Below are positions 6,484 through 33,499 of a stretch of 36,071 bases of DNA, piece after piece. Origin of the DNA: an uncultured Solibacteraceae bacterium (GTDB lineage Bacteria; Acidobacteriota; Terriglobia; Bryobacterales; Bryobacteraceae). Both the position numbers and the translations under genes were made by a program. The notes under the pieces are model-generated. The model did not search any database. It saw nothing but the letters and a program-made list of their open reading frames with translations, and was not told the origin of the DNA. Position 1 is the first letter of the stretch. Every line of letters begins with the position of its first letter. The DNA is taken from positions 1 through 36,071 of the forward strand of contig CAYTVP010000002.1 in NCBI GenBank assembly GCA_964441675.1, written 5' to 3'.

Positions 6484-8586
6484 TCAATTGCAAGCGAGCT
6501 TCGCATCAGCCCAATCGCCATGGTCTGATCCGATGCCGTCACCGCCATCTCGCACAAGCAGCCGTAGTTCGTTCTTTCCCGCCAGATTGACGCTGACCGA
6601 TTTGCCGGCATTTCCGCCAAACATCAGCCCGCTGTCGAACAACTTGGTTCCGTCAGCCCAAACCTCGAACACAATCGAGCCATACCGGCCAACCTCGTCA
6701 TCCACTCCCACTTCAGAAAGGAATGTGCTGCACTTGCCCGCCAGTGAATAGCGAAGCTCTGAAGGAGCGTGTACCCCCAATCCTTTCTCGTACCGTTTCC
6801 CGGCTATGGATATTTGACGGCCGTCGCCGGCTGCCGTTTCTCCGTTGCTACGATCAATTTCCGCCGGGCCCCAACCGTTGGTCGAGTACGTTGCGCCCCG
6901 GTCGCTGAGGTAACCTGTTGCGACCGTTTGCGGCGGCGCCGATGAACAGGTAAGACGCGCATTGGCCCAGTCAGCATGATCGGAGTTCTTGCCGTCGCCC
7001 GCGTCGGTGACCACCAAACGAAGCTCTCGCTTACCCGCGACGGTCACATTCACCGGACTGCCGCCTCCGGAGCCTCTCATGACCGGTGACTCGTAGATCT
7101 TCGCTCCATCCGCGTAGACCTGGAAGATCACTGACCCGTTTCCTCCTACCTCGTCATCTACTCCAACCGTGGCTGTGAAGCTCGTGCAACTCTGCCCCAG
7201 GTTGTAGCGAATGTCCGATGGCGCATGCACCCCGAGCCCCTTCGCATAGGTCACTCCTCCGATTGACATGGTTCTGCCATCGGCCGTCCCAGCTTCCCCC
7301 ACACTCATGTTCTTCTCTGCCGGTCCCCACCCATTGGTGGCGCTCATCCAATTCATATCTCCCAGACTCTGCCCTTCACCTTCATCCGGGGGAGGTGCCG
7401 GAACCGTCACTCCGCCCGATACCAGCCGCAATACTGCCGCCGATTTCCCTCTCAATGTCACTGAATTTACATGCGCGCCGGAGATCGTCTGGTACGTCCC
7501 AGGTAGCGTTACCGTTCTCGTCGCTCCTCCCGGTTCGTTCACCAGCACCATCCCTCCGGAAAAGTCTCTCCTCATCAGTCCAGACCAGTCATACCGGCTC
7601 CCACTCGGCGTCCCCAACTGGACGTCGTATCCCGCCCACCAGTTATCCGGTGTTGTCGCCAGGTCTCCGATCATGTCCCGGTCAGTTGAAATCAGAAAGT
7701 AATTCCCCAGCACATACTCCATGTCCGGCGGATAGTATTCGTCGAATACGACCGCTTTCCCGCGTGCATGCAAACGATCGATGAACGACAGCAACTCTCG
7801 CAGCGACCACGAGCCCGTTCCGCCCGTCAATCCTTCATCCGTTACTCCTCGCTCCACGTTGATGAAATCCGACGCCGCTATCTGTCTCTGCACATATGTG
7901 TCCCGGTCTCGCGTACTTGCCGGTCCTGCGTACCAGATCGAGTTATGGAGCATCTCATACGAGCTCAGCTCCCCCCTGATCTGCTCCACAAACTCAGCCA
8001 TATACCGCCGCCAGTTGTCATAACTCATCGTTCCGCCTGTTCGGGGATCAAACGGCGCCACTTCTGTTCCCGATCCGTTGGATACCCGGAACTGCAGGTT
8101 CACATCGTCCAGCCACAATCCCTTGTAGCCCTTCGACAGGGTTGCTTTCGCCCGGTCGATCCAATATCTCCGAAATGCCGGATTCCCCACGTCCGCCGCG
8201 TACTGCGGACAACTTCCTCCCGAACAACCCCACGGTATGTACAATCGCCGCCCCTGTGGATCCTTCAAAATCCAGTCCGGATTCTGACTCACCAGCGCCA
8301 GATTTGTATGAATTGCATACAGATCCAGGTACAGCCACGCATTCGGATACCAACCCAGCTTGTTATCGAAATATGGCGTATACGTTCCCAGCCGGAACAG
8401 CTTCTGCCTCAGAAAATTCTGGGTCGCCGTGCTTGGATAATCCGTATACCGGTTGAACTCCGGGTTGGCACGCTTCACATACCGCACCTTCCCCGCTTCC
8501 GCCGTCTGGCTCCATCCACTCTGGCTTGCCATCGCCAGGCACCCGATCAATGCCCCGGCTATCTTCATCCCGCGAAAAGTTCTCAT
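6484..8586 (-). CDS. secreted putative glycoside hydrolase (GH114-like / GHL TIM-barrel) with two C-terminal NPCBM carbohydrate-binding modules
   Basis: The start is placed at ATG 8586 (MRTFRGMKIAGALIGCLAMASQSGWS signal peptide; GGAG and AAGGG lie upstream); the track starts at GTG 8628. The N-terminal domain has KGYKGLWLDDVNL, reminiscent of the GH114 G-x-D-G-x-x-L-D motif. The two NPCBM repeats are at approx nt 6946-7371 and 6490-6915 (NGWGP...GDG...KGLGVHAPS...C..F...VGVDDEV...SDH.DWA.A.L.C). Confidence 0.75.
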   Translation of the reverse strand: MRTFRGMKIAGALIGCLAMASQSGWSQTAEAGKVRYVKRANPEFNRYTDYPSTATQNFLRQKLFRLGTYTPYFDNKLGWYPNAWLYLDLYAIHTNLALVSQNPDWILKDPQGRRLYIPWGCSGGSCPQYAADVGNPAFRRYWIDRAKATLSKGYKGLWLDDVNLQFRVSNGSGTEVAPFDPRTGGTMSYDNWRRYMAEFVEQIRGELSSYEMLHNSIWYAGPASTRDRDTYVQRQIAASDFINVERGVTDEGLTGGTGSWSLRELLSFIDRLHARGKAVVFDEYYPPDMEYVLGNYFLISTDRDMIGDLATTPDNWWAGYDVQLGTPSGSRYDWSGLMRRDFSGGMVLVNEPGGATRTVTLPGTYQTISGAHVNSVTLRGKSAAVLRLVSGGVTVPAPPPDEGEGQSLGDMNWMSATNGWGPAEKNMSVGEAGTADGRTMSIGGVTYAKGLGVHAPSDIRYNLGQSCTSFTATVGVDDEVGGNGSVIFQVYADGAKIYESPVMRGSGGGSPVNVTVAGKRELRLVVTDAGDGKNSDHADWANARLTCSSAPPQTVATGYLSDRGATYSTNGWGPAEIDRSNGETAAGDGRQISIAGKRYEKGLGVHAPSELRYSLAGKCSTFLSEVGVDDEVGRYGSIVFEVWADGTKLFDSGLMFGGNAGKSVSVNLAGKNELRLLVRDGGDGIGSDHGDWADAKLACN

Positions 8587-8826
8587 TTCTCGCCCTTTTT
8601 CTCCTATCCGTTTTTTGATTCGATACACTTCACCCTCCTTCGCGCTTGCGTTCCTTCGCTCGGCGAAAAATGGCTGACAGATGTACCTAACTAGGCAGAT
8701 CTATCGATCCGGAAGCATACAAATCATGCTTCTTCTTGTTGGCACTATGGGGCGGTCTTCAGAAAATGAACAACTTGGGCGGGGATACTACGCTGGAATT
8801 ACACTGAGCTACGACACAACTTGAGA

Positions 8827-14443: not shown

Positions 14444-15895
14444 CTAATACGCTCCTTTTCGGAAAAGAACAACCGAGATCGTTCGGAACAGGATGCACAG
14501 GTCGAGCCAGACCGACCAGTTACGCGCGTAGAAGATATCAAGCTGCACCCGCTCCTCGTAACTTGTATCGCTACGTCCTGACACTTGCCATAGTCCGGTG
14601 ACGCCGCCTAACACTCGTGTATACAGCGGATAGTAAGGACCATACCGAACAATCTCCTCTTCGACGATAGGCCGAGGACCCACGAGACTCATATCGCCGC
14701 GTAGAACATTCCATAGCTGCGGTAACTCGTCCAGGCTCGTGCGCCTTAAGAATCTGCCGATTCTTGTGACGCGAGGGTCATTGCGAAGCTTGTGATCGCG
14801 CTCCCATTCCTGACGTAGTTCGGGATGCTGATTCAGGTATTGCTCCAGCACAGCGGGTGCATCCTTCACCATCGACCGGAATTTCCACGCAAAGAACCGT
14901 TTTCCATTGCGGCCAATGCGACGCTGAGCGTAGAACACAGGCCCGGGAGAGTCCAGCTTAATCATCAGGGCAATCAACGCTGCAAACGGCAAAACAAAGA
15001 TACTTGCCGAGACAACAAGGAAGAGATCTACGAACCGCTTCAACCGTACTCGTGTCGACGACAGCGGAAGATGGTCAATCTCCAGACCTACCATTCCGGC
15101 AAGGATGCGGGGATTACCGCTAAGGCATGATGCCTCGTCGATCCGTGGAATCAGCAGAACCCGTTCAAAGCATCCAACACACTTTTCCACAAGCCCGAGA
15201 AAGTAACCTTGTTGGTCATAGTCCGTGGCAACTACCGCATAGTAGGGACCACCGAGCGCAGCCAACGTATTAGCGGCGTTTGAAGCGGCAATGACTGGCA
15301 GGCCGAGTGTGTTTCCTTCGATTAGCTCGTCACGCTCGACGATAAGAATCGGCTTAAGTCCCGCCTCGGGATGCCTGCGCATCGCGTCTATGGCAGCGCT
15401 GCTTGCTAGCCCACCTCCAAAGATGACTGTCGGATGCCCCCAGCAATTTAGAGAAGCCAGCATACTCTTGGCGGCAGCGCGCGTCAGGGGAACAAACACC
15501 ACCGACAGAGCAATGGCAACCCCCAAAGTCCAGGTAAAGGAAGTTTCCGCGCCGCGAAAAGTGGTTGTCAGGGCGGCCAGCGTCATGAACACCATCGTCG
15601 AAGCGATGGCCGTTCGCTGCAGCTCTTCAGGCGCACTCAACGCCATATCGGAGTATAGGCCCATCAACTTATAAACAGCCGGAAATACAAATAAGAGTGG
15701 CCAAAGCCGCAGATACATCGCGATCTCAATTGGGCCTTCTACTATCGCTTTGGTCGCCACGCCCAGAGCTACGGCGAGTATTAACGCCAGCAGATCTGCA
15801 AGTATAAGCGCCGGAACCATGAACATCGCACCTGTAGCCCGATTACTTTCAGGCCGGAATACTGCATTAGTGATCGAAGTAGCCATCGTCATCAT
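14444..15895 (-). CDS. polyprenyl-phosphate glycosyl-phosphotransferase (priming bacterial sugar transferase, WbaP/EpsB-like)
   Basis: Several N-terminal TM helices. The C-terminal sugar-transferase domain has [38 protein letters not shown] and [11 protein letters not shown]. Confidence 0.85.
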
Positions 15896-15930: not shown

Positions 15931-17190
15931 TCACAACTCCACGCTCAGCCCTGCACGATGTCCGCACGATCCGGACATCCAGATTGTTCCCCACTCCACG
16001 GAGAACCCGCGGCTTCCGCCGCCGCTCCCCGTTTCTTCAAAACCGCGGTTTATGACGCGGTTTTGAAGAAACGGGGAGCGGCGGCGGAAGCCGCGGGTTC
16101 TCCGTTTCTTCAAAACCGCGTCATAAACCGCGCAGAGCGATTTCAACATGCCCTGCCGAGTAAACAACTCCTCGTAGCGCGCGCGTCCGGCAGCCCCCAT
16201 CTGGCGTCGTAACTCTGCACTGGAGAGAAGTGTTTCCAGCTTTTGCGCCATGTCCGCTTCGTCCCCGACGTTGGTAAGAAATCCCGTATGACTGTGTTGA
16301 ACAGCCTCGCGAACACCGCCAACATCGGTTGCAATCACTGGAAGGCCTGCGCGCATTGCTTCGAGGATCGTCAAAGGAAATCCCTCCCACCTACTGGGAA
16401 GGACAAATAGTTGAGCAGCGGCAAATAGCTCACTGATGTCCCGCCGCTCGCCGAGAAACTGAACTCGATCAGAGAGCCTCAATGTGGCCGCCAGCGCTTC
16501 TATCTCGCCACGGGTGGGTCCATCGCCGACGAACATCAACATCGCGTCGCTTGCGATGCGATGTAGAGCGCGCAGTAGCAACGCTTGATCCTTTTGCGGA
16601 ACAAATCGCGCCACACAGATGATCCCGGCCTTTGTAGAAACGCCCGGATCCGCGCGTAAGTTGGTATCGGCGACGCCATTGTGGATCGTTATCTGCTGTG
16701 GCTCACGCCCGACGCCATTCCGGAGCGCTAGGCGACGATTCTCTTCGGAAACGTTCACGATGCAATCCGTGAATCGACTAATCGCCCGTTCTACGGGAAG
16801 GCCAATGGTGCGCCATTTCCAAGACGTACCTTCCGCGAAACACCAGGTGTGTGCCGTGAATATGCTTGGCACGCGTAACGACGCGGCTGCAACCCGGCCC
16901 ACAACGCCAGCCTTTGATGTATGCAGGTGAACGAGGTCCGGCTTCCGCCGCGCGATGATTGATCGGATTGCGAATACCGCGCGGATATCATTGATCGGAT
17001 CAATCGGCTGTACCAGGGAAGGAACTACTTCGCAGTAGATTCCCATGTCCTCCAGATGCTTCGTCAGAAAACCGTGCTCTCCGACTATCACCTCAGGAGT
17101 AACCCGGCCTTGGAGACCTTCCAGTAAATCGATTAAGTGAGTTTGCGCGCCACCTAAATCGGCTCGCGTAATAACATACAGAATCTTCAT
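15931..17190 (-). CDS. GT4-family glycosyltransferase; its 3' end reads through the palindrome
   Basis: MKILYVITRADLGGAQTH... and FVLPSRWEGFPLTILEAMRAGLPVIATDVGG (GT4 E-x7-E region). ATGA overlap with the upstream polymerase gene. The last ~65 codons are encoded by the palindrome, so the functional C-terminus is uncertain. Confidence 0.75.
   Translation of the reverse strand: MKILYVITRADLGGAQTHLIDLLEGLQGRVTPEVIVGEHGFLTKHLEDMGIYCEVVPSLVQPIDPINDIRAVFAIRSIIARRKPDLVHLHTSKAGVVGRVAAASLRVPSIFTAHTWCFAEGTSWKWRTIGLPVERAISRFTDCIVNVSEENRRLALRNGVGREPQQITIHNGVADTNLRADPGVSTKAGIICVARFVPQKDQALLLRALHRIASDAMLMFVGDGPTRGEIEALAATLRLSDRVQFLGERRDISELFAAAQLFVLPSRWEGFPLTILEAMRAGLPVIATDVGGVREAVQHSHTGFLTNVGDEADMAQKLETLLSSAELRRQMGAAGRARYEELFTRQGMLKSLCAVYDAVLKKRRTRGFRRRSPFLQNRVINRGFEETGSGGGSRGFSVEWGTIWMSGSCGHRAGLSVEL
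15998..16132. repeat. perfect 50-bp-arm palindrome (8-nt loop) overlapping an alternative 31-bp inverted repeat
   Basis: Checked base by base. 15998-16047 is the reverse complement of 16056-16105. 16044-16074 is the reverse complement of 16102-16132. The unit CCGTTTCTTCAAAACCGCG is present three times. Confidence 0.9.
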
Positions 17191-18449
17191 GCGTCCTCCC
17201 GTGCGGTCCAGGCCAAACCAAACAAGAACCAGAAATGACGCCAGTGAAGACTATCGATTACGACGCAGTTGGCTAGCTGACCTACAGTACATACACTCAC
17301 GACAATAAAGAATCGGCGCCAAAAGGGATCGCGAGCACGAATGGCCGCGCCGATGGATCGAAAGACGGTGATTGCAAACAATCCCAGAAGACTGATTCCG
17401 CCGAGGACCCCGTTCTCGCTAAACGCACGTAAATAGGTACTATGTGTCGCATAGCGAAATACAAACTCGGACTGCCCGGGACCGATACCCAGCGGTTCGT
17501 CCACCACACTCCTCATCGCGAGTGAATGCGTATGGAATCGCATCCGGTCGTATGTTTGAAGCCCGCGATGACCGAGCCGGATCTGAAGCATGGCATCCAC
17601 GACGGGAATCTTGGCAATCAAATAGACCGCGGCGGCGGCCATCGCGCATAAGCCGGCAAACATTACCAGCTTGCGGACAATCTGCCGAATATCACGATTC
17701 TCAATCAGCTGAAAGAGAGCCATTCCGGCCATCGAGATTGTCAAGTTCATCCAGCAGGCGCGGGAAAAGCTGAGAAAGATTCCTGGAACGCAAACTAAGA
17801 GGACACTGCCCCAGATCCACCAGCGGCGGCGATGGTGCTCCGGCATCAGCAGGTTCGCGGCCGCATACACAGCGACTGGGACAACAAACGGTCCAAAGAC
17901 GTTGGGGTCTTTGAATAGTCCCTTGGGCCGGCCGTAAAGCAGTAAATACTGCTGTCCGCCGATCAAATGAAGGTAGGACCCAGCGGCCAGAACGACAGTT
18001 ACAATCGCAGCGGCCGTGTAGCCGGCAAAGATTGACTCTACAGCTGCCTTACCGAGCGCCGTAGTCACCGCGAAAAAGAACGCAGTAGAGGCCAGTAGAT
18101 AAAGCGTTACTGCGATGTACCAGACGCCGCGCATAGGATCCACTGAGTTCCACAGTGAGATCACATTGAACAGTGCAAACAACAAAAGAAACAGCACCGG
18201 GATGGCATGTACTTTGTCGATGCGATACAGGTTGAATATGAACCCAATCGGGATAAGGAGGCAGATCAGCAGATCGACTGGAGCCGGCTCAAACAACACC
18301 AACGCACTGATAGCCATCGCCAGCCCAACTGCGATCAGAAAGAGCCGCGTTCGGGCATCTACATCGCCGGCCCATCGAGGCCGCGGTTCGTCCAACAGTC
18401 CAAAAGACGGAACCGCGTGCGTCACCGCCAGTGCAGGTAATCTGGTCAT
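17187..18449 (-). CDS. O-antigen ligase/polymerase-family membrane protein (Wzy-like)
   Basis: About 10 or more predicted TM helices. The central FSRACWMNL... loop region is typical of the Wzy_C/O-antigen ligase family. ATGA overlaps at both ends. Confidence 0.65.
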   Translation of the reverse strand: MTRLPALAVTHAVPSFGLLDEPRPRWAGDVDARTRLFLIAVGLAMAISALVLFEPAPVDLLICLLIPIGFIFNLYRIDKVHAIPVLFLLLFALFNVISLWNSVDPMRGVWYIAVTLYLLASTAFFFAVTTALGKAAVESIFAGYTAAAIVTVVLAAGSYLHLIGGQQYLLLYGRPKGLFKDPNVFGPFVVPVAVYAAANLLMPEHHRRRWWIWGSVLLVCVPGIFLSFSRACWMNLTISMAGMALFQLIENRDIRQIVRKLVMFAGLCAMAAAAVYLIAKIPVVDAMLQIRLGHRGLQTYDRMRFHTHSLAMRSVVDEPLGIGPGQSEFVFRYATHSTYLRAFSENGVLGGISLLGLFAITVFRSIGAAIRARDPFWRRFFIVVSVCTVGQLANCVVIDSLHWRHFWFLFGLAWTAREDA

Positions 18450-20617
18450 GCCTTTGCCGGATAATAGGCGTGGATATTCTCTTCAGGCTGGCAATCGTTC
18501 AAGATCGTTCCAAACACGTTGCTGCCATCCTGCTGCAACCGCTGCCGGCACAGGGAAGCCGTTTCGAATGACGTCTTGCCAGCTCGAAGAACGAGGATGA
18601 TGCCATCGGCATTCCGTCCCAACAGCCGTGCCGCCGGAGCGAGCATCATGGGAGGCGTATCAATGATGGTGGTGTCATAATCCAGCCGCACCATTTCGTA
18701 CAAAGCCTTCAGGCCTGCCTGATCGAATAGAGTCCGGGACGAAGTCGGCCATTCGCCGCTGCTCATCACGTAGAGCCCAGGCGTACTGGTGGGATGGGTG
18801 TAGTCGCTGAGATCTACCATTGGTTTGGCCGAGGTGAGCAACTCAGCAAGTCCATTTTCTTTCGGGATGTCATGAATCGTATGAATCCGTGGCAATCGAA
18901 AGTCGGCATCTATGAGCAGCACTTTTCGTCCTGTTTCCGCAAGAGTCTTTGCCAGCTGGCTAGCGATCGTCGTCTTGCCGTCTTTGGGGTGAGGGCTAGT
19001 TACGACAATGACGCTGTGCTCGCTGCCTGTTGTCAACAGTAGGGATGTAACGATTGCCTGATAGGAATCACCGGCAAAAGCCGCAGTCGCGCTAAAGGGC
19101 TCGCTATTACTTGCATCGCCGCGTCCACGAGTGCTGTCCAGGCCAAGCGCCAGCCGGTTGCCAACCTTTCTGTGATGTACCCATGGCACTGTGCCGAGTT
19201 CTTGAACCTGAAGAATCTGAGAGATTTGTCCGGGCCGCTGTAGGCTACTCTTGCTGAGTGCACGGAAAATAACCACGCCCGACGTGAACAACAAACCTCC
19301 CAACCCGCCGAGTGTTGCTCCTAGAATCGGGATCGGCCTGTGAGGGTCTGCAGGAACTTCGGCTGGTTCGATAATTCTGAGGTTGGTCCCCCGGGTAGCA
19401 GAAGCGACATCCACCGTCTTCGTCTTCTGCAACATGTCCGCATAGAGAGCGCGATTGATCTCGACGTTATGCCGCAGCGTGTCATAACGAATGCGAAGTC
19501 TGCCCTGTGCGACGACAACCTGTGACTGGGCACGGTAGCCGTCGGCGAGCAGCTTCTCCCGGTGATTTGCTGTTTCAAAGTCACTTTCCAGCCGGTTGAT
19601 CACTCGCCTGCGTTCGGCAGAAATCTCGGAAAGGATCTGTGCAATCTGCGCATCCACACGTTGCACCTTGTAGTTTGTCGGCATCAGCAGCGTGCTTAGC
19701 TCCGCGTGTTGCCGGCGAAGCTCGGACAGCCTGGCCTGAAGATCTCGCAGCGGCGGGTGATCGATCGTAGCGGCGAGTGATTCAGGATCCGTCTTCTCGG
19801 CGTTGCGCATCAGCGATTCCTTTGCGATGCGGTCCGCCTGTGCAGCAGACAGTTCCTGTTGCAGCCGCTGCAGCTTTTGCTCGGCCAGGATCACCTTGTC
19901 ATCCACCAGCAGGAGGCCTGCTCCTGCTGCGTAACGTTGGAGCTCGCGCTCCGACGACTCCATGTCGCTCTTGAGATCCTCGAGCTTGCTTTTCAGCCAC
20001 CCGGCGGTTTTCTCCACACCCTCCCAACGCGACTGAAGGTTGTCTTCAATGTAGAGTTCCGCCATTGTTCCTACAAAGCGGGAGGCATAAGCAGGGTCCG
20101 GTGACTCGAAGTAGAGTTCGAGAATATTTCCCTGCGGCGCGATGCCGATATTCAGATTTGCCCGTGCCGCCTCAAGCGCAGCGGATTGCCTCTGCTGGCC
20201 GTTCGGTTGTCTCCCGAACAATCGGTCAACGAGCGGGCGTGGTTTGCGGGGATCTGTGTTGGGGGGGTCACCGATTTTAGCCAATACTTTTCTTGCCAGC
20301 GCGTCAGTTTTCAGAATCTCAACCTGAGTTTCCAGGTAGCTGGTCATTGCTCCCGCTTCATGGCTCTGATTCAGTGGGTTGATGTTACGCGTATTCAGGA
20401 AATCTGGATTGACATCGAGTACCTCGAGCTTCACCACCGCGCGATAGATCGGGGTCCGTTGTAGAGTAATCCACAATCCCGCAGCGGCCGAGCACAGAGT
20501 TACAAATCCAATGAGTAGAAGCGATCGTCCCAATTTCCGCCAATGTGACAATAAGCTTTCATCGGTGGTAAGTCCTCGAAAGCCAGCTATCTCGTTATCA
20601 CTGGTAAGAAGTTTCAT
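18446..20617 (-). CDS. polysaccharide co-polymerase / tyrosine autokinase (Wzc-like BY-kinase)
   Basis: N-terminal Wzz-type region with a TM helix, a long coiled coil (LQQELSAAQADR..., LSELRRQHAEL), then a second TM helix. The C-terminal P-loop domain has VTSPHPKDGKTT and TTIIDTPP. The C-terminus ends ...HAYYPAKA. Confidence 0.8.
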   Translation of the reverse strand: MKLLTSDNEIAGFRGLTTDESLLSHWRKLGRSLLLIGFVTLCSAAAGLWITLQRTPIYRAVVKLEVLDVNPDFLNTRNINPLNQSHEAGAMTSYLETQVEILKTDALARKVLAKIGDPPNTDPRKPRPLVDRLFGRQPNGQQRQSAALEAARANLNIGIAPQGNILELYFESPDPAYASRFVGTMAELYIEDNLQSRWEGVEKTAGWLKSKLEDLKSDMESSERELQRYAAGAGLLLVDDKVILAEQKLQRLQQELSAAQADRIAKESLMRNAEKTDPESLAATIDHPPLRDLQARLSELRRQHAELSTLLMPTNYKVQRVDAQIAQILSEISAERRRVINRLESDFETANHREKLLADGYRAQSQVVVAQGRLRIRYDTLRHNVEINRALYADMLQKTKTVDVASATRGTNLRIIEPAEVPADPHRPIPILGATLGGLGGLLFTSGVVIFRALSKSSLQRPGQISQILQVQELGTVPWVHHRKVGNRLALGLDSTRGRGDASNSEPFSATAAFAGDSYQAIVTSLLLTTGSEHSVIVVTSPHPKDGKTTIASQLAKTLAETGRKVLLIDADFRLPRIHTIHDIPKENGLAELLTSAKPMVDLSDYTHPTSTPGLYVMSSGEWPTSSRTLFDQAGLKALYEMVRLDYDTTIIDTPPMMLAPAARLLGRNADGIILVLRAGKTSFETASLCRQRLQQDGSNVFGTILNDCQPEENIHAYYPAKA

Positions 20618-20632
20618 TGACTCTCCAGGGAA

Positions 20633-21976
20633 CTAATGTTCCGGTACACTTTCTTTCCAGTTGGCCGCTCCCAAAGTGTCGGTGGACGGATTGCTGATTC
20701 CTCTTCGTCCGTAGTTCCCAATCCAGAACGGAGCCAACTTCGCGGCGGCGCGAAATAGCTGCGCCACCATATATGCTTCAGCAAGTACGGCCCCCCAGGC
20801 CGCACCAAGATGAGCGAATTTCACCGCCAACCCAGCGGTGAGAAAAATATTGAGGAGACCACTCCCAATCACAATGCGACTCACAACTGCCTGATATCCC
20901 AGTGGCATCAACCACTGCATAGCCGATATATTTGCCAGTGACCCGAAAAGGACGATCAGTGACATGATTCGTAGCGCCGGGACCGCCATTTCGAATCCCG
21001 GACCCATGACAGTGGCGATGATCGGCTGAGCCAGAATCGCCAGAGAGGCGGACAGAATGAATCCTCCCGCGAGCAGGACAACCGCGCCGATCCTTGCCAA
21101 CCGCGCAGCTTCGTCGAGAGCGTTCGCCGCCAGGTGGCTGATTCGGGGATAGAACGCCTCATGTATCGGATTTAAGAGACCGAGCGTCGCGGAGCTGATT
21201 TTTTCCGCCGCCGCGAAATACCCAACGACGTGCAGCGGCTCAAACGTACCCAGGATGAAGACAGTCGCCGTGCCGCTGAGACCCGTGGACAGCCGATAAA
21301 TAAACGGGGACCACGCAGCTTGAAATGCCGCCTTCAGGTCGTTGATCACGGGCCACTGTACTGCACCGGAACGGACGATCAGAAAGTATCCTGCGCCCGT
21401 CGTTACCAAGGGACCCATTCCCTGTAGAACAAGCGCTTTCCAATCATCGTCAGGGCTGCGAACCAACAGCAGGATTCCCGCCATCCCGATCAGCTTTCCT
21501 ACCATGTCGAGAACTGCGGCGGTCTTTAGGCGCTCCATGCCCTGAAAGAACCAGAACGGCGTTAAACCTTGGGCAACACCGAAGAATACGGCCCCCGCCA
21601 GCAATGGCAAGCGATCGGATAAGTTCGGAATAATCGGCGAGAGCAGAAACACAGCGACGCTACCGGCGAGCGCGAGGAGAAGCTGCGAGCAGATAACTCC
21701 GCTAACAACCTTCCTGCTGGTATCTTTGTTGTCCCGCGTTCTCGCTACTTCGCGCGCGGCCGAAAGTGGAAATCCGAACTCCACCACAACCATCAGAAAC
21801 ATGCCCACCGATAGTGAGAACGCAACGCCACCCCACCCGGCGACGCCCAGTACACGAGCTAGATAAGGTATGACAACAATAGGCGCTAGCTTTCGGCAGA
21901 GTTGTATCCCATAAAGGGCAACCGTGTTCTGAAAGAGCGGGTTTCTGACAAACTGCCCCTGTCTGAAGATCTTCAT
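20633..21976 (-). CDS. polysaccharide flippase (Wzx / MOP superfamily)
   Basis: 447 aa and multi-TM. The N-terminal LFQNTVALYGIQLCRKLAPIVVIPYLARVLG is typical of Polysacc_synt proteins. Confidence 0.75.
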   Translation of the reverse strand: MKIFRQGQFVRNPLFQNTVALYGIQLCRKLAPIVVIPYLARVLGVAGWGGVAFSLSVGMFLMVVVEFGFPLSAAREVARTRDNKDTSRKVVSGVICSQLLLALAGSVAVFLLSPIIPNLSDRLPLLAGAVFFGVAQGLTPFWFFQGMERLKTAAVLDMVGKLIGMAGILLLVRSPDDDWKALVLQGMGPLVTTGAGYFLIVRSGAVQWPVINDLKAAFQAAWSPFIYRLSTGLSGTATVFILGTFEPLHVVGYFAAAEKISSATLGLLNPIHEAFYPRISHLAANALDEAARLARIGAVVLLAGGFILSASLAILAQPIIATVMGPGFEMAVPALRIMSLIVLFGSLANISAMQWLMPLGYQAVVSRIVIGSGLLNIFLTAGLAVKFAHLGAAWGAVLAEAYMVAQLFRAAAKLAPFWIGNYGRRGISNPSTDTLGAANWKESVPEH

Positions 21977-23253
21977 TCGACGCTCCGTGCCGGGGACGTA
22001 GGCGCCGGCGGCAGCGTCGACACCGGGTGCTTGTCATGGTTGTGCTGTTTGGCGCACGCTGTTTCGTAAACGGAAAGAAGTTGATTAACGACCCGGTCCC
22101 ACGTATAACGGCTTTCGACCAGAGCCCGGCCGCGCTCCCCGCAAGCCTTCAGTTCCTCCGGGCGGGCGGAAAGTTCCTGTAACGCTTTGGTCAGCGACGA
22201 CGGCGACGAATCGACAACAAATCCTGCCTGCGCAGTTTCAACATCGGGAAAGTGACATTGCGGCGAGATCAGGACCGGCGTGCGTGATGCCAGCGCCTCG
22301 AGGATCGCCATCGAAAACCCTTCGCCATCCGAAGGAAGGCAGAAAAGATTTGCGCGGCTCAATAAGTGCCTCTTGATATCCCCATTCACCATGCCCGCAA
22401 ATACGACACGACTCTCCGCGCCGCGTTCGCGCACCTGATCCCGGAACTGCGTTTCAAATCCATACTCATCCGGGCCGGCCAATACCAGCACCGGGTTCGG
22501 CAACTGGTGATGACAACTCAGAAAGGCTTCGAGCAGGCGAGATGCTCCCTTTTGCGGGTGCATTCGACTCATGAACAACACGACAAAACTCGACGACGTA
22601 ATCTGCTTCGGTAAGAAACCTGGCTCGGGATGATCTACCCCATACTGATTCGCGTCCACACCATTTGGAACCACTCGACAATCAGTTTTGACGCCGAGCG
22701 CGCGATAGCTGGCAACCTCAGCTTCAGTCAACGCGAGCAACACCGACGCCCGGTCCATAATTGGCTTTTCGATCATCCGGATGTAGAGGCGTTTCTTGGC
22801 GCCGCGATACTGCAACCGGCCCGGATCAAAAACACCGTGCTGTTGATAGACAAGCGGCCGCTCGAAACGAAATGCGACTCTCGAGGCGGCGATCATTGGA
22901 TAGGTGAACGGCGCGTGCGCGTGCACAAGATCCACCGAAGGCATGATCTTTTCGAGAGCCCGCTTCATCTCCGGCGTATAAAGGAATCCGGATGACCGGG
23001 AGAGGTAGGGAATAAACGGAAGATACTCCCGCACTAACTCCCGCCGCGCGAAATACCACACCGATACACCCGAGACATCATGGGCAACGTTTGGTTCTAT
23101 TGCCAAGTCCTCATCCAGGTTGCTGTTCGACGCAAATACGGTGACCCGATGTCCAAGCCGAACTTGTCGTTCGGCGATCTCAAAGCCGGTAAACACGGTA
23201 CCGCCCAGCCGATAGGCTGGCTTGTAGCCGTTCAGGATGTGGAGAATATGCAT
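21973..23253 (-). CDS. GT4-family glycosyltransferase
   Basis: MHILHILNGY..., LFCLPSDGEGFSMAILEALASRTPVLIS. ATG 23253 is chosen; the track starts at TTG 23286. Confidence 0.8.
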   Translation of the reverse strand: MHILHILNGYKPAYRLGGTVFTGFEIAERQVRLGHRVTVFASNSNLDEDLAIEPNVAHDVSGVSVWYFARRELVREYLPFIPYLSRSSGFLYTPEMKRALEKIMPSVDLVHAHAPFTYPMIAASRVAFRFERPLVYQQHGVFDPGRLQYRGAKKRLYIRMIEKPIMDRASVLLALTEAEVASYRALGVKTDCRVVPNGVDANQYGVDHPEPGFLPKQITSSSFVVLFMSRMHPQKGASRLLEAFLSCHHQLPNPVLVLAGPDEYGFETQFRDQVRERGAESRVVFAGMVNGDIKRHLLSRANLFCLPSDGEGFSMAILEALASRTPVLISPQCHFPDVETAQAGFVVDSSPSSLTKALQELSARPEELKACGERGRALVESRYTWDRVVNQLLSVYETACAKQHNHDKHPVSTLPPAPTSPARSVE

Positions 23254-23315
23254 GTAGCCCGAGATTTCACGGTGATGAACCGGCAACTCACTGAAGAGCG
23301 CCCGTGTTCTGGTTG

Positions 23316-24230
23316 CTAAACAGCCCGATCCGGGGACGATGCGCGAGACGGCTCAATGGCCATAACCTTCGCTGGCTCGGCAGTCTGATTGTCGTAGGAG
23401 CGGAGCCACCCGGCCGTCCTGCCGGAGAACACCGCGAAGTGGTAACCAGCCTTTCGGAAGCGAAGCAGTGCCATATTCAGGCAGGTACCGCCAAGCGGGC
23501 GAACTAAGTGCGGGGCAACAAGGCCTAATGGAAATCGATGCTTGCGAAGAACGCGGCCGAAGCCGCGGCCATACGCGCGCGCCTTTTGGCGCACTGCTTG
23601 CGACGCCGGACCCGCCGTCCACTCCGGATGGTGCACAATCAGGTCTGGCTCGTAGTGAGCGAGCCGGCCGGACTCGATAAGACGCAAGATGAAGTCGGGA
23701 TCCTCACCGCCTCCCCACGGAGTTCCCGCTCCGACGCCGAGCGTTTCGTCAAAGCCCAGCGCTCTCGCGCATTCAATTCTGGCAAAGATACTGATACTGC
23801 AGGATCGTGTCCAAACGTTGGACCGCTTAATTCTTCCGGGAGTCAGATCCCATCGTCCACTCGACGGCAAACCTTCTGCGGTGAGCGATCGGCCGCAAAC
23901 GGCGCTTAGCGACGAATTCTGGACCAGATAATCCCGAACGCTCTGCAGAAGCGAATCCGGGTACCAGCAATCATCGTCTGGAAACGCCACAACGTCGCCC
24001 GACGCACGCTCCAACCCAACATTCAGCGCTCTGGAATGTCCCCGTACCGGACCCGCGTAGATCAGATTATCGACCGAACAATCCCGAAGGTACTCGCGTA
24101 CTCCGGTGTCATCCGGCGGGCCCACAACAATAACTTCGAAGTTGCGGTATACCTGTCTAGCCGTGCCCTCAAAAAATCGGTCCAGGTCGCTTCGACGACC
24201 TACCGTACTCAAAATCAAAGAGAATTTCAT
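23316..24230 (-). CDS. GT2-family glycosyltransferase (first gene of the EPS operon)
   Basis: MKFSLILSTVGR..., FEVIVVGPPDD, VVAFPDDDCWY (DxD region). An AGAAGGA Shine-Dalgarno lies about 9 nt upstream of the ATG. Confidence 0.8.
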   Translation of the reverse strand: MKFSLILSTVGRRSDLDRFFEGTARQVYRNFEVIVVGPPDDTGVREYLRDCSVDNLIYAGPVRGHSRALNVGLERASGDVVAFPDDDCWYPDSLLQSVRDYLVQNSSLSAVCGRSLTAEGLPSSGRWDLTPGRIKRSNVWTRSCSISIFARIECARALGFDETLGVGAGTPWGGGEDPDFILRLIESGRLAHYEPDLIVHHPEWTAGPASQAVRQKARAYGRGFGRVLRKHRFPLGLVAPHLVRPLGGTCLNMALLRFRKAGYHFAVFSGRTAGWLRSYDNQTAEPAKVMAIEPSRASSPDRAV

Positions 24231-24527: not shown

Positions 24528-27500
24528 TCAGTTTGTACATGTTAACCGCGCGGATGCCCAATCCGCATGATCGTAGTCGATCCAGTCACTTCCTCCTGTT
24601 ACTCGAAGAAGTAACTCCGCTCGCCCAGTTACATCCACATCTACTGTTTGCGTTACACTGGATCCGGTCATTGTCCCGCTCGAGAATAGCTGAACGCCAT
24701 CCGCGAAGACCAGGAAAACGACCGATCCCATCGCACCTACCTCGTCATCCACCCCAACGCTCGCCTGAAACGAGGTACAACTCCCGCCAAGGTTATAGCG
24801 AATCTCGGATACAGCATGCACCCCGAGACCTTTAGCATGAGTAACTCCATTCAGAACAATTGGCCCACCGTCGCCCGCGGCATTCTCCCCGTTGCTGCGA
24901 TCCTTCTCTACCGGACCATATCCATTAATTGGCGTTCCAATCCATGTCATGTCACTGAGAAAGCGGGTGGTAAGTGCAGCTGACACGGTTTGAAATGTCC
25001 AGGTATGATCACTCGCCAGCCGATTTCCTGCAACATCTGATACACCGGAAGGTCCTCCGGCCACTTTGGCCAAGTACGTCGTGCTGTTTTTCAACGAAGC
25101 CGCCGGCTGAAGAGTTACCGTGCGTGTAGCCGCCGCATAGCTTACCGTTGCCGCTAGTACTTCGGTTGTTCCCTGTTCCACCAAAGTAACCGTACTGGTA
25201 TTGATGGTAGAGGTCAGCATATTTTCTGAGAACACGGCTGATACGGCAGCAGTCGTGGCGATCCCTGTAGCACCAGAAGATGGAGTGGTGCCGGATACAG
25301 TCGGTGGAGTAGTGTCCACCGGAGGCGAGGCTACCGTACGGAACGTCCACGTCTGATCGGCTGCCAGGTGATTTCCTGCGATATCGGCGACCCCGCCAGC
25401 GCCGCCTTTCACAGAGGCGGCATAGACGGTATCCTGTTTCAACGCGGTAGTTGGCTGAAATAAACCTGTTCTTGTCGCCGCCACATAGTTTACCGTTCCG
25501 GCAACAGGTGTTGCTGTCCCCTGCTCCATCAAAAACAGCGTACTGGCGTTGACCGACGAGGCATTCATTGCTTCGGAGAACACAACGGAGACAGATGTGG
25601 ATACGGGTACGGCCGTGGCTCCATTGACAGGAGCGGTGCTGACGATCGTCGGAGGTGTCGTTTCGGAGCTGAATGTCGCTGTGAATGTTATGCCCGTTTC
25701 ACCTACCGTTACATTGTGCTGCTGAGCGCCTCCGTTCGACCATGATAGAAACGTCCGACCTCCTTGCGGAGACGGCGCGAAAATCGTATGAGCTGAACCT
25801 GCCGTCGTCTGCCTGGTTAGAGGACTGGTTCCCGCAATACCGCCATAGACCACCTGCAACCCAGTCGGGACGGTCGCAAGAGTAATCGGTATCAGCTTTG
25901 GTTGAATTACGACTGTCTTAGTTTCGCTAAGGCCACCGCTATCGGTAGCAGTGAGATCCAACTCAAAATGACTTTCATCACCATGGTCGGGAATGACGAA
26001 GCTTCCGGACGCTCCTGTTACTGTCGTAAGAATATGTATGTGACATACCCCGCTCGGGCAGTGTTGGATGCGGATTACCCATGACAGATTCGAACTCGGG
26101 ATTGTGCCATCCTCCGCATCGGTGGCTGATCCCGAAAAGTTGATGACATCTCCCACCTTATACGTCAGGGTCGGGGATGGAGATGCAATAGTGACAACAG
26201 GCTTTGCGTTCGTGGCAGTGCAGGTAATCCTGGCGTCTGCCCAATCGGCATGGTCGGAATCAATCCAGTCGCCACCGTCCAGCACACGAAGCCTCAACTC
26301 ATTCTTTCCGCTGATGTTTACCGATATAGGAAGTGGTCCGTCGGTCCCGCGGCGAACCGGACTCGCAAACAATCTAGTTCCATCCGCCCAAACTTCGAAT
26401 ACCACCGACCCGAAATTTCCGACCTCGTCATCCACGCCAACGTCGGCAGCGAAGGACGTACACGCACCGCCCAGCGCATACCGCACATCGGAAACCGCAT
26501 GTGTACCCAGCCCCTTCGCATAAACGGTTCCGCCAATGGTTAAGGGTCTGCCATCTCCTGCTGCGTTCTCACCGTTGCTGAGATCCTTCTCGACGGGTCC
26601 ATAGCCGTTGGTCATCGACGTCCACGTTAGATCGCTTAGATACGTTGCCACGGAGCCGCCGCCGCTTCCAGTCGTAAAAGTCCAGGTGTCGTCGGCAACC
26701 AATGGATTACCTGCCACATCCTTTACTCCCGACTCACCGCCCTTTACCGTTACAAGATAGGCTGTGGACGGCGTGAGTGGGGCGTATGGTTGCAGAGTGG
26801 CGCGCCGGTTCGGCGCATCATAGTTAAGCGACGCAGATACCGGATTGCCGCCGGTTTGAAGATAAAAAGTGCTGGTTGTAACGGTGGCAGCATTCATCGG
26901 CTCAGAGAACGTAATCACAACGCCCGTTGAGATCGGTACACCAGTGGCATTGCTTGCCGGGTTCCGGGTGGCAATAGTCGGTGGAGTCGTATCCGCCGCA
27001 GCGGTGCAAGTAATCTTTGCATCCGCCCAGTCCCCATGATCGGATCCAATTCCGTCACCTCCATCAAGTACCGCGAGCACAAGCTCTTGCTTGCCTTGTA
27101 TATTCACGTTCACCGATCTCGTCGCGGTCGAGCCCGTCATTAATCCGCTGTCATACAGCGTTGTGCCGTCAGCTTGAACCCGAAAGACGATACTTCCAAA
27201 CGGACCCACTTCGTCGTCCACGCCAACTTGAGCCGTAAACGCAGAACATTGACCTAATATCGGATAGCGAAGTTGTGATTGCGCGTGAGTTCCGAGACCT
27301 TTCTGAAAGGTAACTCCCGCGAGAGTGATTACTTTTCCGTCGCCGTCTTCAAGCTCTCCATTACTGCGGTCTTTCTCAAAAGGTCCCCAGCCATTGGTGG
27401 CGCTAATCGGTAGCAGATCGCTAACAAACGATGTACCTGGTGGTGGAGGTGTCACTGTTGTAAATGTCCAGACGCGGTCCCCCACTAAGGTATTACCGGC

Positions 27501-29642
27501 CAAATCGCGCGCGCCGCTAGCGCCGCCCCGTATAGTAACCACGTAGGTCCCGCCTTGATCGAGATTGGCAACAGGATCGAGAACCGTTGTATTCGTTGCG
27601 GCTGTATGGACGATTGTTGCGGAAACTGGCGATCCACTACCTTGCTTCCGCAGTTCGAACGTCGAAGCATTCAGCGACGACACATCCATGGCTTCCGTCC
27701 ACGTCACGCTGACTGATGTGCTTAACGCGCCTATGCTCCCATTGGCCGGCGTTGAGCTGAGTATGTTCGGCGGATCCGCATCAGGGCCGTCAATATGACG
27801 GACGCGCTTTAGTTGACCGGTAACAATGGCCAGGTAGTACAAATTGCCGTCCGGACCCATGTTGAACGCTACAGGACCTTCCGCGTTCGTCGCGAAGTTA
27901 ACCGGTGTTCCGACAAGATTATTGTTGGCGTCTACCTTCAGGTATGTGATGGTGCTGTCGGCATAGTCCCCGTAAAAAAATGCCCCCTGATACTCTGCCG
28001 GGTAATTCGTTCCGGTATAGAACACACCACCTACGGCAGCGGCGCTTCGTCCGGCTCTATCGATCTCAACCAGCGGTCCCTTAGCTGCAGCCGGTCCCTG
28101 CTGATAGAGAGCCTGGCAGACCGGTAAAGGCTCAAACCCGCTCTGGCGGGCATTTCCCTCAAAGCATGGCCAGCCGAGATTTGCACCAGCAGTCGCCACA
28201 TTGATCTCTTCGAAAGATCCCCAGCCCACTTCGCCCATGAAGGGAACATTGGACCCTGGCTTTAGCCCGAAACGGAATGAGTTCCGCATTCCATAGGCAA
28301 AAATCTTGGATTGGTTTGCGGCCGCATCGCCCGTCCAAAAGGGGTTCGACGGCAATCCTGCACCAGTAGGGGTAATTCTCAACAGCTTGCCGGCCAGGGA
28401 ATGCAGATACTGTGACCGCAACGCGTCGTCGGTTACGATGTTGAAATTGGCGCCCTCACCCAGACTGACAAATAGATTCCCGTCGGATGCGAATCGAATC
28501 CCTCCGACACTGTGAGACCAATAGTCAGACGGAATACAATCGGCGCCTTGCGGGAAGTCGTTACAGGAACCGGTACCACCGACAACAGTTCCCACCAACA
28601 CTAACTCCGAACTGAGAGATGCTGTGTCTCCCTGTGCAGTAACTCGAATAACTTGAGCAGTTTTTGGTCCGGAGGCGTCTAACGGATCATGTTCGTACGT
28701 ATAGGACAGGTAAACGTAACCGTTCGTCGCAAAGTTTGGATCCACGGCCAGCCCGAGAAGTCCCCGGTCCCATATGCTGTTCACCCGGCTTCGCATATCC
28801 AGAAACGGCGTCGGGAGGATCGCACCATTTTTGAAGATTCGAATCAATCCGGTCTGTTCGGTGAATAGAATCCGCCCATCGGGAAGAAACGCAAAATTGG
28901 TGGGCTGTTGCAAACCCGATGCCACAACGTCCACAAGAAATCCGAGATTGATGTTGATCGCGTTACCCATGGGCGCCGCAGCTAATCTCGGTTCGATCTT
29001 TACTGCGCGCGCGGCGCCGGCGCCCGTGGTTGAATTCTCTTCAGGGCTTACCAGCGTTTCATCAACAAGGAACTCCATGGGTTGGTTATCGGCGGGAGAC
29101 AGTGCCTCGCTTCGAACCGGGTCACCCAACTTGAAAGCCCCCGCCTGCCAGACGCATCCTCGCCGGAAGGTTCGCGCATGCTGTTCTGCGGCTCGAAACT
29201 CAGTTCGATAGCGCCCCACTCCGACGGTTCGCACTAATCCGGCCCTCAGTAAGTCGAGCGCTACAATGTTGCCAAGCTTCCGGAAGTGATATGCACGGCG
29301 CCGGCGCTGATCGAAAGCCTCAAGGGGATCGTCTTCAAGGTCGACGCCGCCCGCCAGTAACAACTGTAAACCCCTCGCTGCCAACTGTCCACAAGCCGTC
29401 CGCAGCGGTGGAGCTTCAATACCAGCCAGACGGATCGCGCTGCGCAGGCCGTTTACATATACGTCGATGCTTTCACCGTCGATGACCCGTACGAAACCTC
29501 TCACTGTCCGATTCCCAGTACCTGCAGCGGGGGCTCCGCCAGGAGGGACACGAATGATACGTGGCTGTGCAAGAGCAGCTACACTCATTACCGCGATCAG
29601 TCCCCACCGGATCACCGATGCATATTTGTTACTCGAACGCAA
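24528..29642 (-). CDS. giant secreted multidomain protein: SNase-like, PQQ-dependent sugar dehydrogenase beta-propeller, 4x Big_5-like Ig, PKD-like region, 3x NPCBM
   Basis: The start is placed at TTG 29642 (GGAGGAGGA 9-10 nt upstream; gives MRSSNKYASVIRWGLIAVMSVAALA signal peptide); the track starts at TTG 29732. Approximate domain coordinates in nt: SNase-like 29148-29501; propeller 27798-28949 (GLLGLAVDPNF, HSVGGIRF, GKLLRITP, YGMRNSFRF); Big_5 at 27453-27776, 26670-26993, 25335-25664 and 24987-25319; NPCBM at 27006-27431, 26220-26645 and 24537-24965; PKD-like 25668-26207. Confidence 0.8.
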   Translation of the reverse strand: MRSSNKYASVIRWGLIAVMSVAALAQPRIIRVPPGGAPAAGTGNRTVRGFVRVIDGESIDVYVNGLRSAIRLAGIEAPPLRTACGQLAARGLQLLLAGGVDLEDDPLEAFDQRRRRAYHFRKLGNIVALDLLRAGLVRTVGVGRYRTEFRAAEQHARTFRRGCVWQAGAFKLGDPVRSEALSPADNQPMEFLVDETLVSPEENSTTGAGAARAVKIEPRLAAAPMGNAININLGFLVDVVASGLQQPTNFAFLPDGRILFTEQTGLIRIFKNGAILPTPFLDMRSRVNSIWDRGLLGLAVDPNFATNGYVYLSYTYEHDPLDASGPKTAQVIRVTAQGDTASLSSELVLVGTVVGGTGSCNDFPQGADCIPSDYWSHSVGGIRFASDGNLFVSLGEGANFNIVTDDALRSQYLHSLAGKLLRITPTGAGLPSNPFWTGDAAANQSKIFAYGMRNSFRFGLKPGSNVPFMGEVGWGSFEEINVATAGANLGWPCFEGNARQSGFEPLPVCQALYQQGPAAAKGPLVEIDRAGRSAAAVGGVFYTGTNYPAEYQGAFFYGDYADSTITYLKVDANNNLVGTPVNFATNAEGPVAFNMGPDGNLYYLAIVTGQLKRVRHIDGPDADPPNILSSTPANGSIGALSTSVSVTWTEAMDVSSLNASTFELRKQGSGSPVSATIVHTAATNTTVLDPVANLDQGGTYVVTIRGGASGARDLAGNTLVGDRVWTFTTVTPPPPGTSFVSDLLPISATNGWGPFEKDRSNGELEDGDGKVITLAGVTFQKGLGTHAQSQLRYPILGQCSAFTAQVGVDDEVGPFGSIVFRVQADGTTLYDSGLMTGSTATRSVNVNIQGKQELVLAVLDGGDGIGSDHGDWADAKITCTAAADTTPPTIATRNPASNATGVPISTGVVITFSEPMNAATVTTSTFYLQTGGNPVSASLNYDAPNRRATLQPYAPLTPSTAYLVTVKGGESGVKDVAGNPLVADDTWTFTTGSGGGSVATYLSDLTWTSMTNGYGPVEKDLSNGENAAGDGRPLTIGGTVYAKGLGTHAVSDVRYALGGACTSFAADVGVDDEVGNFGSVVFEVWADGTRLFASPVRRGTDGPLPISVNISGKNELRLRVLDGGDWIDSDHADWADARITCTATNAKPVVTIASPSPTLTYKVGDVINFSGSATDAEDGTIPSSNLSWVIRIQHCPSGVCHIHILTTVTGASGSFVIPDHGDESHFELDLTATDSGGLSETKTVVIQPKLIPITLATVPTGLQVVYGGIAGTSPLTRQTTAGSAHTIFAPSPQGGRTFLSWSNGGAQQHNVTVGETGITFTATFSSETTPPTIVSTAPVNGATAVPVSTSVSVVFSEAMNASSVNASTLFLMEQGTATPVAGTVNYVAATRTGLFQPTTALKQDTVYAASVKGGAGGVADIAGNHLAADQTWTFRTVASPPVDTTPPTVSGTTPSSGATGIATTAAVSAVFSENMLTSTINTSTVTLVEQGTTEVLAATVSYAAATRTVTLQPAASLKNSTTYLAKVAGGPSGVSDVAGNRLASDHTWTFQTVSAALTTRFLSDMTWIGTPINGYGPVEKDRSNGENAAGDGGPIVLNGVTHAKGLGVHAVSEIRYNLGGSCTSFQASVGVDDEVGAMGSVVFLVFADGVQLFSSGTMTGSSVTQTVDVDVTGRAELLLRVTGGSDWIDYDHADWASARLTCTN

Positions 29643-29765
29643 AGACGGGCTTCCTCCTCCCAACACGTACCGCCCGAGTAGTCTGTAAAACACAAGTGCT
29701 CGCAATGTCGGTTCGGGCGGGCCAACAAGCAAGGAATAGGAAATCTAAACTTCCGAGAAGTTTTG

Positions 29766-33445: not shown

Positions 33446-33499
33446 GGTTTGTCCGTGAATGCCACCAACCGTCATTTTTTCAACATTTTAGAGAGAGCA

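Follow-up and report, generated by a model that had tools for sequence, protein, structure and literature searches.

A 135-nt element at positions 15998-16132 of contig CAYTVP010000002.1, from an uncultured Solibacteraceae bacterium, combines two overlapping perfect palindromes inside the 3′ end of a gene for a GT4 glycosyltransferase. Our analyses indicate that it is probably the footprint of a single recent replication error within the cell, a microhomology-primed double template switch that would have produced a miniature inverted triplication in the 3′ end of this gene. The window analysed here is one whole metagenomic contig of 36,071 nt, and copy counts within the genome cover this window only. 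The comparison set consists of 95 related loci (514 kb). The 3′ end of GT4 could be located in 67 of them, 22 of which have a WbaP-like gene next after GT4.

Anatomy of the palindromic element

The longer of the two pairings joins 15998-16047 to the reverse complement of 16056-16105, giving perfect arms of 50 nt on either side of an 8-nt spacer (GTTTATGA, 16048-16055). A second perfect pairing of 31 nt joins 16044-16074 to the reverse complement of 16102-16132 across a 27-nt spacer, and can be extended to 34 nt at 97% identity (16044-16077 and 16099-16132). The 19-mer CCGTTTCTTCAAAACCGCG is present three times, at 16029-16047 (plus strand), 16056-16074 (minus strand) and 16102-16120 (plus strand). 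Apart from the 34-nt extension, these coordinates had been given exactly in an earlier note made from the sequence without database searches. That note also described two mutually exclusive hairpins, which are physically real, and proposed an RNA folding check. When this was run, the 108-nt hairpin folded at -114.2 kcal/mol (z = -19.9), against -67.6 kcal/mol for the alternative 31-bp hairpin, and the 50-bp stem prevailed over the 31-bp alternative when the full 135 nt were folded as RNA.

The structure did not come about by chance. The only perfect stems of at least 11 bp in the window are the element's own 50- and 31-bp pairings, and perfect stems in the 514 kb of related loci top out at 21 bp, with the next at 14 bp. 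Since the two stems lie far above everything else in the window and in the related loci, a chance origin is excluded.

A single 62-nt sequence accounts for the whole element

Every base of the element can be derived from one 62-nt sequence, here called N, which reads CGCGGTTTATGACGCGGTTTTGAAGAAACGGGGAGCGGCGGCGGAAGCCGCGGGTTCTCCGT in mRNA sense. The 135 nt equal N[1-31] followed by the reverse complement of N[5-58] and then N[13-62], exactly and with zero leftover bases; because N was rebuilt from the element itself, the fit of this decomposition is internal. An exhaustive breakpoint search returned 5 x 5 = 25 equivalent placements, which means that microhomology is exactly 4 nt long at either junction: ACGG for the first switch, CGCG for the second. 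The former is the final 4 nt of copy 1 (CCGT on the plus strand, 16102-16105) and the latter the initial 4 nt of copy 3 (plus strand 16044-16047), both given in mRNA sense. The components are as follows.

16102-16132, minus strand: copy 1, direct, N[1-31], CGCGGTTTATGACGCGGTTTTGAAGAAACGG, with the native GT4 codons for AVYDAVLKKR
16048-16101, plus strand reads N[5-58]: copy 2, inverted, the reverse complement of N[5-58], 54 nt, containing the spacer GTTTATGA
15998-16047, minus strand: copy 3, direct, N[13-62], restarting 19 nt behind the departure point and running into the native tail
16044-16132: junction palindrome 1, 31-nt perfect arms, its 27-nt spacer being that of ACGG-27-CCGT pre-existing in N
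15998-16105: junction palindrome 2, 50-nt perfect arms, its 8-nt spacer being that of CGCG-8-CGCG pre-existing in N
16029-16047, plus strand: direct repeat copy A, 19 nt exact, or 22 nt with one mismatch from 16026
16102-16120, plus strand: direct repeat copy B, partner of 16029-16047 at a spacing of 73
Novel junction 1, mRNA sense: GAAGAAACGG joined to AGAACCCGCGG
Novel junction 2, mRNA sense: CCGCGTCATAAAC joined to CGCGGTTTTG, also written AAAACCGCGTCATAAAC joined to CGCGGTTTTGAAG
Putative ancestral allele, stretch continuous in N: TCTGCGCGGTTTATGACGCGGTTTTGAAGAAACGGGGAGCGG

Within N, positions 13-31 (the 19-nt core) are represented three times, in direct, inverted and direct orientation; positions 5-12 and 32-58 are represented twice, and the remainder once. 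The net gain of 73 nt equals the spacing of the 19-nt direct repeat, and deleting 73 nt between 16029-16047 and 16102-16120 regenerates N exactly. Each junction falls in N on a short inverted repeat with a spacer (CGCG-8 nt-CGCG for one, ACGG-27 nt-CCGT for the other), and these spacers are the loops of 8 and 27 nt in the two palindromes. A span of at least about 39 nt, reaching from the upstream flank into N32 and beyond, is needed to tell the ancestral from the derived allele, since shorter k-mers of N are present in both.

Judged from its letters, the element is a direct-inverted-direct ("inverted triplication") arrangement, the signature of two template switches. Any such arrangement inevitably contains two inverted repeats that overlap in the middle copy, and the pair of mutually exclusive hairpins follows as its by-product.

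The repeat was built from the end of the GT4 gene

The element lies inside the 3′ end of the GT4 open reading frame (ORF), which reads through it.

15931-17190, minus strand: GT4 glycosyltransferase ORF in its present form, 419 aa, Pfam Glycos_transf_1 / Glyco_transf_4, stop at 15931
15945-15947, minus strand: predicted stop (TGA) of the putative ancestral 390-aa GT4, from translation of the reconstructed allele

The earlier note had placed the element at the junction between the GT4 gene and the priming sugar-transferase gene. It does lie near that boundary, but it is not intergenic: it sits within the GT4 frame and shifts the tail. Residues 1-363 of the protein are native, and both GT-B domains are intact. 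The last 56 residues (RTRGFRRRSPFLQNRVINRGFEETGSGGGSRGFSVEWGTIWMSGSCGHRAGLSVEL) are Arg-rich and are encoded by the inverted copy, by the frame-shifted copy 3 and by sequence beyond it; they stand in exchange for the last 27 residues of the ancestral protein. Removal of the 73 nt gives a 390-aa GT4 that ends in ...KKRGAAAEAAGSPWSGEQSGCPDRADIVQG before the stop codon.

Copy 1 encodes AVYDAVLKKR. In alignments of the closest homologues, AVYxxVL forms the conserved end of the GT4 family, with an invariant tyrosine (Y356) and an unconserved tail after it. Because copy 1 consists of these family-conserved codons, the repeat was built from the gene's own coding sequence. Among 22 homologues, 15-39 residues (median 27) follow the invariant tyrosine, compared with 34 in the reconstructed allele and 63 in the present ORF. 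Only one of 119 homologues, a 681-aa protein, reaches at least 419 aa, and the median length is 382 aa. The tail of the reconstructed 390-aa GT4 fits its homologues, and the present 419-aa protein does not.

The element is unique in the sequences searched

No second copy of the element was found by blastn-short in the masked window and the 95 related loci, a search of the kind that the earlier note had proposed in order to look for a dispersed repeat family. Its remark that the window holds a single copy is confirmed at up to 3 mismatches: there are no further copies of the 19-mer at that tolerance, and none are expected from 100 shuffles. A scan of JGI metagenome contigs with the 19-mer returned 15 loci, which are chance matches, as their flanks are identical to ours only at random level (6-16 of 40 positions). 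Viral contigs, scanned with the 19-mer core and a GC-rich arm segment, gave 0 matches. Rfam gave 0 matches at the gathering score across the whole window, and a permissive scan yielded nothing but eukaryotic miRNA-precursor models, each scoring well under its threshold, which represent generic long hairpins.

A comparison with orthologous GT4 3′ ends had also been suggested. Across the 67 related loci with a locatable end, including the 22 in which a WbaP-like gene follows, a comparable hairpin is absent. The 200 nt around the GT4 stop fold there at a mean of -0.32 kcal/mol/nt, with -0.48 for the most stable, compared with -0.70 kcal/mol/nt for 211 nt around the element. The nearest genomes belong to Bryobacterales/Bryobacteraceae and to other metagenome-assembled genomes (MAGs) of Acidobacteriota, at about 50% protein identity. 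No identical proteins are on record for WbaP (with either possible start), for GT4 or for the 420-aa protein encoded upstream of it. A 92-aa query from the GT4 C-terminus failed to recover even the protein of the window itself and had no other match, which shows that this search was without power.

A probable double template switch during replication

The remainder-free decomposition of the 135 nt, the 4-nt microhomologies and the use of the gene's own conserved coding end support the earlier note's suggestion of a recent inverted duplication by template switching. Recent is the appropriate word, since there are zero mismatches in the 50- and 31-nt arms.

The course of events may be reconstructed as follows. 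The nascent strand, in mRNA sense, would have copied N as far as ...AAACGG (N31), where its 3′ ACGG would have annealed to CCGT (N59-62), 27 nt ahead, on the complementary-strand template. Backward synthesis would then have proceeded for 54 nt, from N58 to N5. The new 3′ end, CGCG, is self-complementary and occurs at both N1-4 and N13-16; it would have returned to the original template by pairing at N13-16, not at a site ahead of N31, and normal synthesis would have resumed from that point. The template may have been freed for re-copying by the nascent strand itself, which perhaps folded into the 31-bp hairpin and thereby peeled off. Because N32-58, a stretch still missing from the nascent strand at that time, is part of the backward copy, the first switch would have been inter-strand, across the fork, rather than a snap-back of the nascent strand. 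This argument holds equally for replication from the other side.

On the plus strand, GC skew stays below zero in nearly all 2-kb bins as far as about 30 kb (cumulative -1.1) and is close to zero beyond. Taken with the mostly minus-strand genes, this is a weak hint that the leading nascent strand is the one in mRNA sense, which would agree with a switch from the leading to the lagging template. The change in skew coincides with the switch from minus- to plus-strand genes at about 30 kb.

Several observations weigh against this origin. In the four-point template-switch model, which generalises the quasipalindrome mechanism of Ripley (1982), the product is F1 + rc(2→3) + F3 (PMC5453318, Löytynoja & Goldman 2017). 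The order of switch points in our element is 3-4-1-2 in 25 of 25 equivalent solutions. The class in which 4 precedes 1 was not observed in 794 human-chimp events and, in the authors' view, would need the opening of the new duplex (PMC5453318, Löytynoja & Goldman). The nearest homologues are only 58% (GT4, queried as the reconstructed 390-aa form) and 55% (WbaP) identical, and the 62-nt ancestral allele is a reconstruction. A single contig does not establish fixation in a living population, and the in vivo origin is what we infer from the features above. Codon usage, finally, gives a log-likelihood ratio of 0.42 for the ancestral frame of the tail and 0.77 for the current one, against 4.3 +/- 2.5 for true frames. 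By codon usage and GC content at third positions (GC3), both tail frames fall between the true-frame and off-frame distributions; this result is neutral evidence and fits a weakly constrained GT4 tail. A two-step history that avoids the 4-before-1 order was considered and set aside as less parsimonious, since a first switch with return at N32 would have to be followed by another event that inserts exactly 19 nt at the junction just formed.

Alternative explanations

The element might instead have been created outside the cell, by a double switch during whole-genome amplification or library construction or by mis-threading in the assembler, with the organism carrying only N. Polymerases template-switch in vitro at microhomologies, and the chimeras of phi29 multiple displacement amplification (MDA) are mostly inverted, with short microhomology; moreover, the window, as one metagenomic contig of 36,071 nt, amounts to one observation. 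We nevertheless regard an artefact as rather unlikely. Two different novel junctions would both need sequenced molecules, and random chimeric reads are usually of low coverage and dropped for the majority path. Collinear sequence with intact operon genes extends 16 kb to one side of the element and 20 kb to the other. As for the assembler, any assembly k-mer is much longer than a microhomology of 4 nt, so mis-threading of the graph alone should not be able to make such junctions and is an unlikely origin.

A second alternative is a selected cis-regulatory element of RNA or DNA, in which the 50- and 31-bp hairpins would act as a switch, a processing site, a stabiliser or a protein-binding palindrome and would set the expression of upstream genes (GT4, Wzc, Wzx) relative to downstream ones (WbaP and the sugar-nucleotide genes). 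The earlier note had raised this possibility, and several points speak for it. Both pairings exist and are highly stable (-114 and -67.6 kcal/mol), transcription would produce the 5′ hairpin before the other, and differential expression would be well served by a location between GT4 and the priming transferase. RNase III could plausibly cut a 50-bp RNA duplex, and the predicted stem would structurally provide the duplex of about two helical turns or more that this enzyme requires. However, nothing comparable is found at the 3′ end of GT4 in any of the 67 related loci and no Rfam family matches at threshold, so that the proposal of a maintained element finds no support. The sequence lies inside an ORF, shifts the frame of GT4 and is made of that gene's own coding sequence, and its bulge-free identical arms resemble a new mutation rather than an evolved RNA. 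Since the 50-bp stem beats its alternative by about 47 kcal/mol, the two would not form a balanced switch at equilibrium. Neither a U-tract nor a terminator-like site is present at 15998-16132, where the 3′ flank on the mRNA is GGAGUGGGGAAC; as the earlier note had recognised, the element is not a canonical intrinsic terminator, and a Rho-independent terminator is rejected for a stem without a U-tract on the transcript. Taken together, we judge a regulatory origin to be very unlikely.

An inserted mobile or dispersed palindrome is hardly credible, whether of the kind of repetitive extragenic palindromic (REP) sequences and bacterial interspersed mosaic elements (BIMEs), a miniature inverted-repeat transposable element (MITE), an attC-like integron site or an inverton. 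Its size of about 100-135 nt and its palindromic form are similar to such elements, and mobile DNA and invertible promoters are often encountered in exopolysaccharide (EPS) loci. Against this, the element is single-copy in the window, the 514 kb of related loci and the metagenome and viral contig scans. It has no target-site duplication, its sole direct repeat being the 19-nt core, and the 36-kb window contains no recombinase, integrase or transposase. The entire sequence is explained by flanking coding sequence, including the AVYxxVL codons; an incoming mobile element would not consist of such conserved host codons, and the earlier note's suggestion of a REP/MITE-like insertion finds no support on the same grounds. 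The inverton, attC and REP/MITE readings were all rejected for the single copy, the short spacer, the perfect coding-derived arms and the lack of a recombinase: an 8-nt spacer is too short for an invertible promoter, and attC and REP stems are short or bulged, unlike a perfect 50-bp pairing.

Consequences for the gene and the operon

If the element did arise by a double template switch, its effects on the organism may be modest. The GT4 tail is frame-shifted and lengthened with the catalytic domain intact, a change that is probably tolerated because this tail is unconserved in the family; since only this non-conserved part of the protein is altered, the practical impact is probably small. The polycistronic mRNA would acquire a duplex of 50 bp, lying some 100 nt upstream of where the WbaP ORF starts. 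RNase III might cut this duplex or ribosomes might be slowed by it, and either effect could uncouple the upstream and downstream halves of the operon. None of these consequences bears an apparent sign of being a selected effect.

At the DNA level, instability is to be expected of a 108-bp perfect palindrome whose spacer is 8 nt long; a slip from one 19-nt direct repeat to the other would remove precisely 73 nt and give back N. As a long shot, the element could be a still-symmetrical miniature tandem inversion duplication captured before remodelling, produced by a switch of the 4-before-1 class, that through its precise deletability might act as a high-frequency, reversible on/off or dosage toggle for the GT4 tail and WbaP expression, that is, as palindrome-driven phase variation of the EPS operon.

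The element offers a natural example, from an uncultivated bacterium, of how one replication error may turn ordinary coding sequence into a 50-bp perfect stem and an attenuator-like pair of hairpins. It also carries a caution for genome scans: a unique perfect palindrome that can be split into direct, inverted and direct copies of its own flank is a mutational scar and not a regulatory device.

Genomic neighbourhood

On the minus strand, the genes around the element form a polysaccharide operon of the Wzx/Wzy type, as recognised by Pfam.

23316-24230, minus strand: GT2
21973-23286, minus strand: another GT4, upstream
20633-21976, minus strand: Wzx-like flippase
18446-20617, minus strand: Wzc-like chain-length regulator/kinase
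17187-18449, minus strand: 420-aa protein between the Wzc-like gene and GT4, with no Pfam match at E<=0.001
14444-15895, minus strand: WbaP-type undecaprenyl-phosphate sugar phosphotransferase (Bac_transf), ORF start about 100 nt downstream of the element
After WbaP, minus strand: rest of the operon, with a nucleotidyl transferase, a DegT aminotransferase, a Wza-like exporter, an epimerase, a methyltransferase and a deacetylase

The 420-aa ORF occupies the slot expected for a Wzy polymerase or an O-antigen ligase in such operons. The start of WbaP is ambiguous (15826-15895, minus strand): the longest ORF begins at an ATG at 15895 and gives 483 aa, further ATG codons lie at 15892 and 15886, and the gene call in the protein collection is 460 aa, with homologues of about 480 aa. 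Housekeeping genes for TyrRS, Fpg and a pterin-binding enzyme show that the window is chromosomal.

Two large proteins share NPCBM/NEW2 repeats, one of 1734 aa (24528-29732, minus strand; GSDH, four Big_5 and three NPCBM domains) and one of 714 aa (6484-8628, minus strand; GHL15 and two NPCBM domains). The NPCBM-coding repeats are 60-80% identical in DNA within and between the two genes. Two proteins with FGE-sulfatase (sulfatase-modifying factor) domains and a sulfatase flank the operon (884-2671, minus strand; 31555-32574 and 33449-34882, plus strand). Together with the NPCBM proteins, they suggest a broader glycan-processing neighbourhood. Among the related loci, the longest perfect palindrome lies at 1750-1791 of locus L056, on the Gemmatimonadales MAG contig DATLZT010000188.1, and has 21-nt arms without a spacer (CGCCCCCCGGGAGCGGACCCG followed by CGGGTCCGCTCCCGGGGGGCG).

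Comparison with known systems

Like intercistronic hairpins and RNase III sites, the element would place a long RNA duplex between the functional parts of two cistrons, where cleavage of the duplex, or stabilisation of the upstream mRNA by it, would be conceivable. Unlike them, it is unconserved and translated through, and it is longer and more perfect than characterised sites. With REP/BIME sequences and MITEs it has in common a length of about 100 nt and a strong hairpin potential within an operon; it differs in being single-copy and intra-ORF, in consisting of local coding sequence with perfect arms, and in having no RAYT or transposase nearby.

A closer architectural parallel is found in inverted triplications. 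In Salmonella, Kugelberg et al. (2010, in Genetics 185:65) reportedly described the tandem inversion duplication (TID), whose fully symmetrical junctions are said to be an unstable precursor expected to be remodelled by deletion. The inverted triplications of yeast, attributed to origin-dependent inverted-repeat amplification (ODIRA), have junctions where interrupted inverted repeats of 2-14 bp, separated by less than 100 bp, already existed (PMC10766183). Human DUP-TRP/INV-DUP rearrangements are reported to show the same architecture at larger scale (PMC11293582, PMC4352052). As in all of these, the element has three copies with the central one inverted, that is, a triplicated core and duplicated flanks. 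The likeness to ODIRA extends to the junctions, which lie at CGCG-8-CGCG and ACGG-27-CCGT. Both are still fully symmetrical, which would correspond to the precursor state of the TID. The differences concern scale and effect: the element spans 19-54 nt instead of kilobases to megabases, and it amplifies no gene and offers no dosage to selection, producing a frameshift within coding sequence. A unit of 19-54 nt within coding sequence cannot hold a replication origin, whereas the segment amplified in ODIRA includes one and goes through an extrachromosomal intermediate. The element would thus represent a small-scale version of TID, ODIRA and DUP-TRP/INV-DUP structures with both junctions intact.

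The nearest counterpart in mechanism is the four-point template switch. Template switching is an established one-step route to long perfect stems (PMC8794818, Mönttinen & Löytynoja 2022; PMC5453318). The element can be written as F1, the reverse complement of a nearby fragment, and F3, from one local reference and without unexplained bases. Its 2→3 fragment of 54-62 nt is on the same scale of tens of bases and lies above the threshold of at least 14 nt used to exclude chance (PMC5453318). As this fragment reaches beyond point 1, the switch would have to be inter-strand. Two differences stand out. The ancestor of the element is a reconstruction and not a sequence seen in a sister genome, and the switch points follow the order 3-4-1-2, with a return 19 nt behind the departure that leaves an added direct repeat. 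An order in which 4 precedes 1 is theoretically possible and was unobserved in human-chimp and human-human data (PMC5453318). If confirmed on reads, the element in this GT4 gene would indicate that the class of template switch in which the return lies before the departure, unobserved in primates, does occur.

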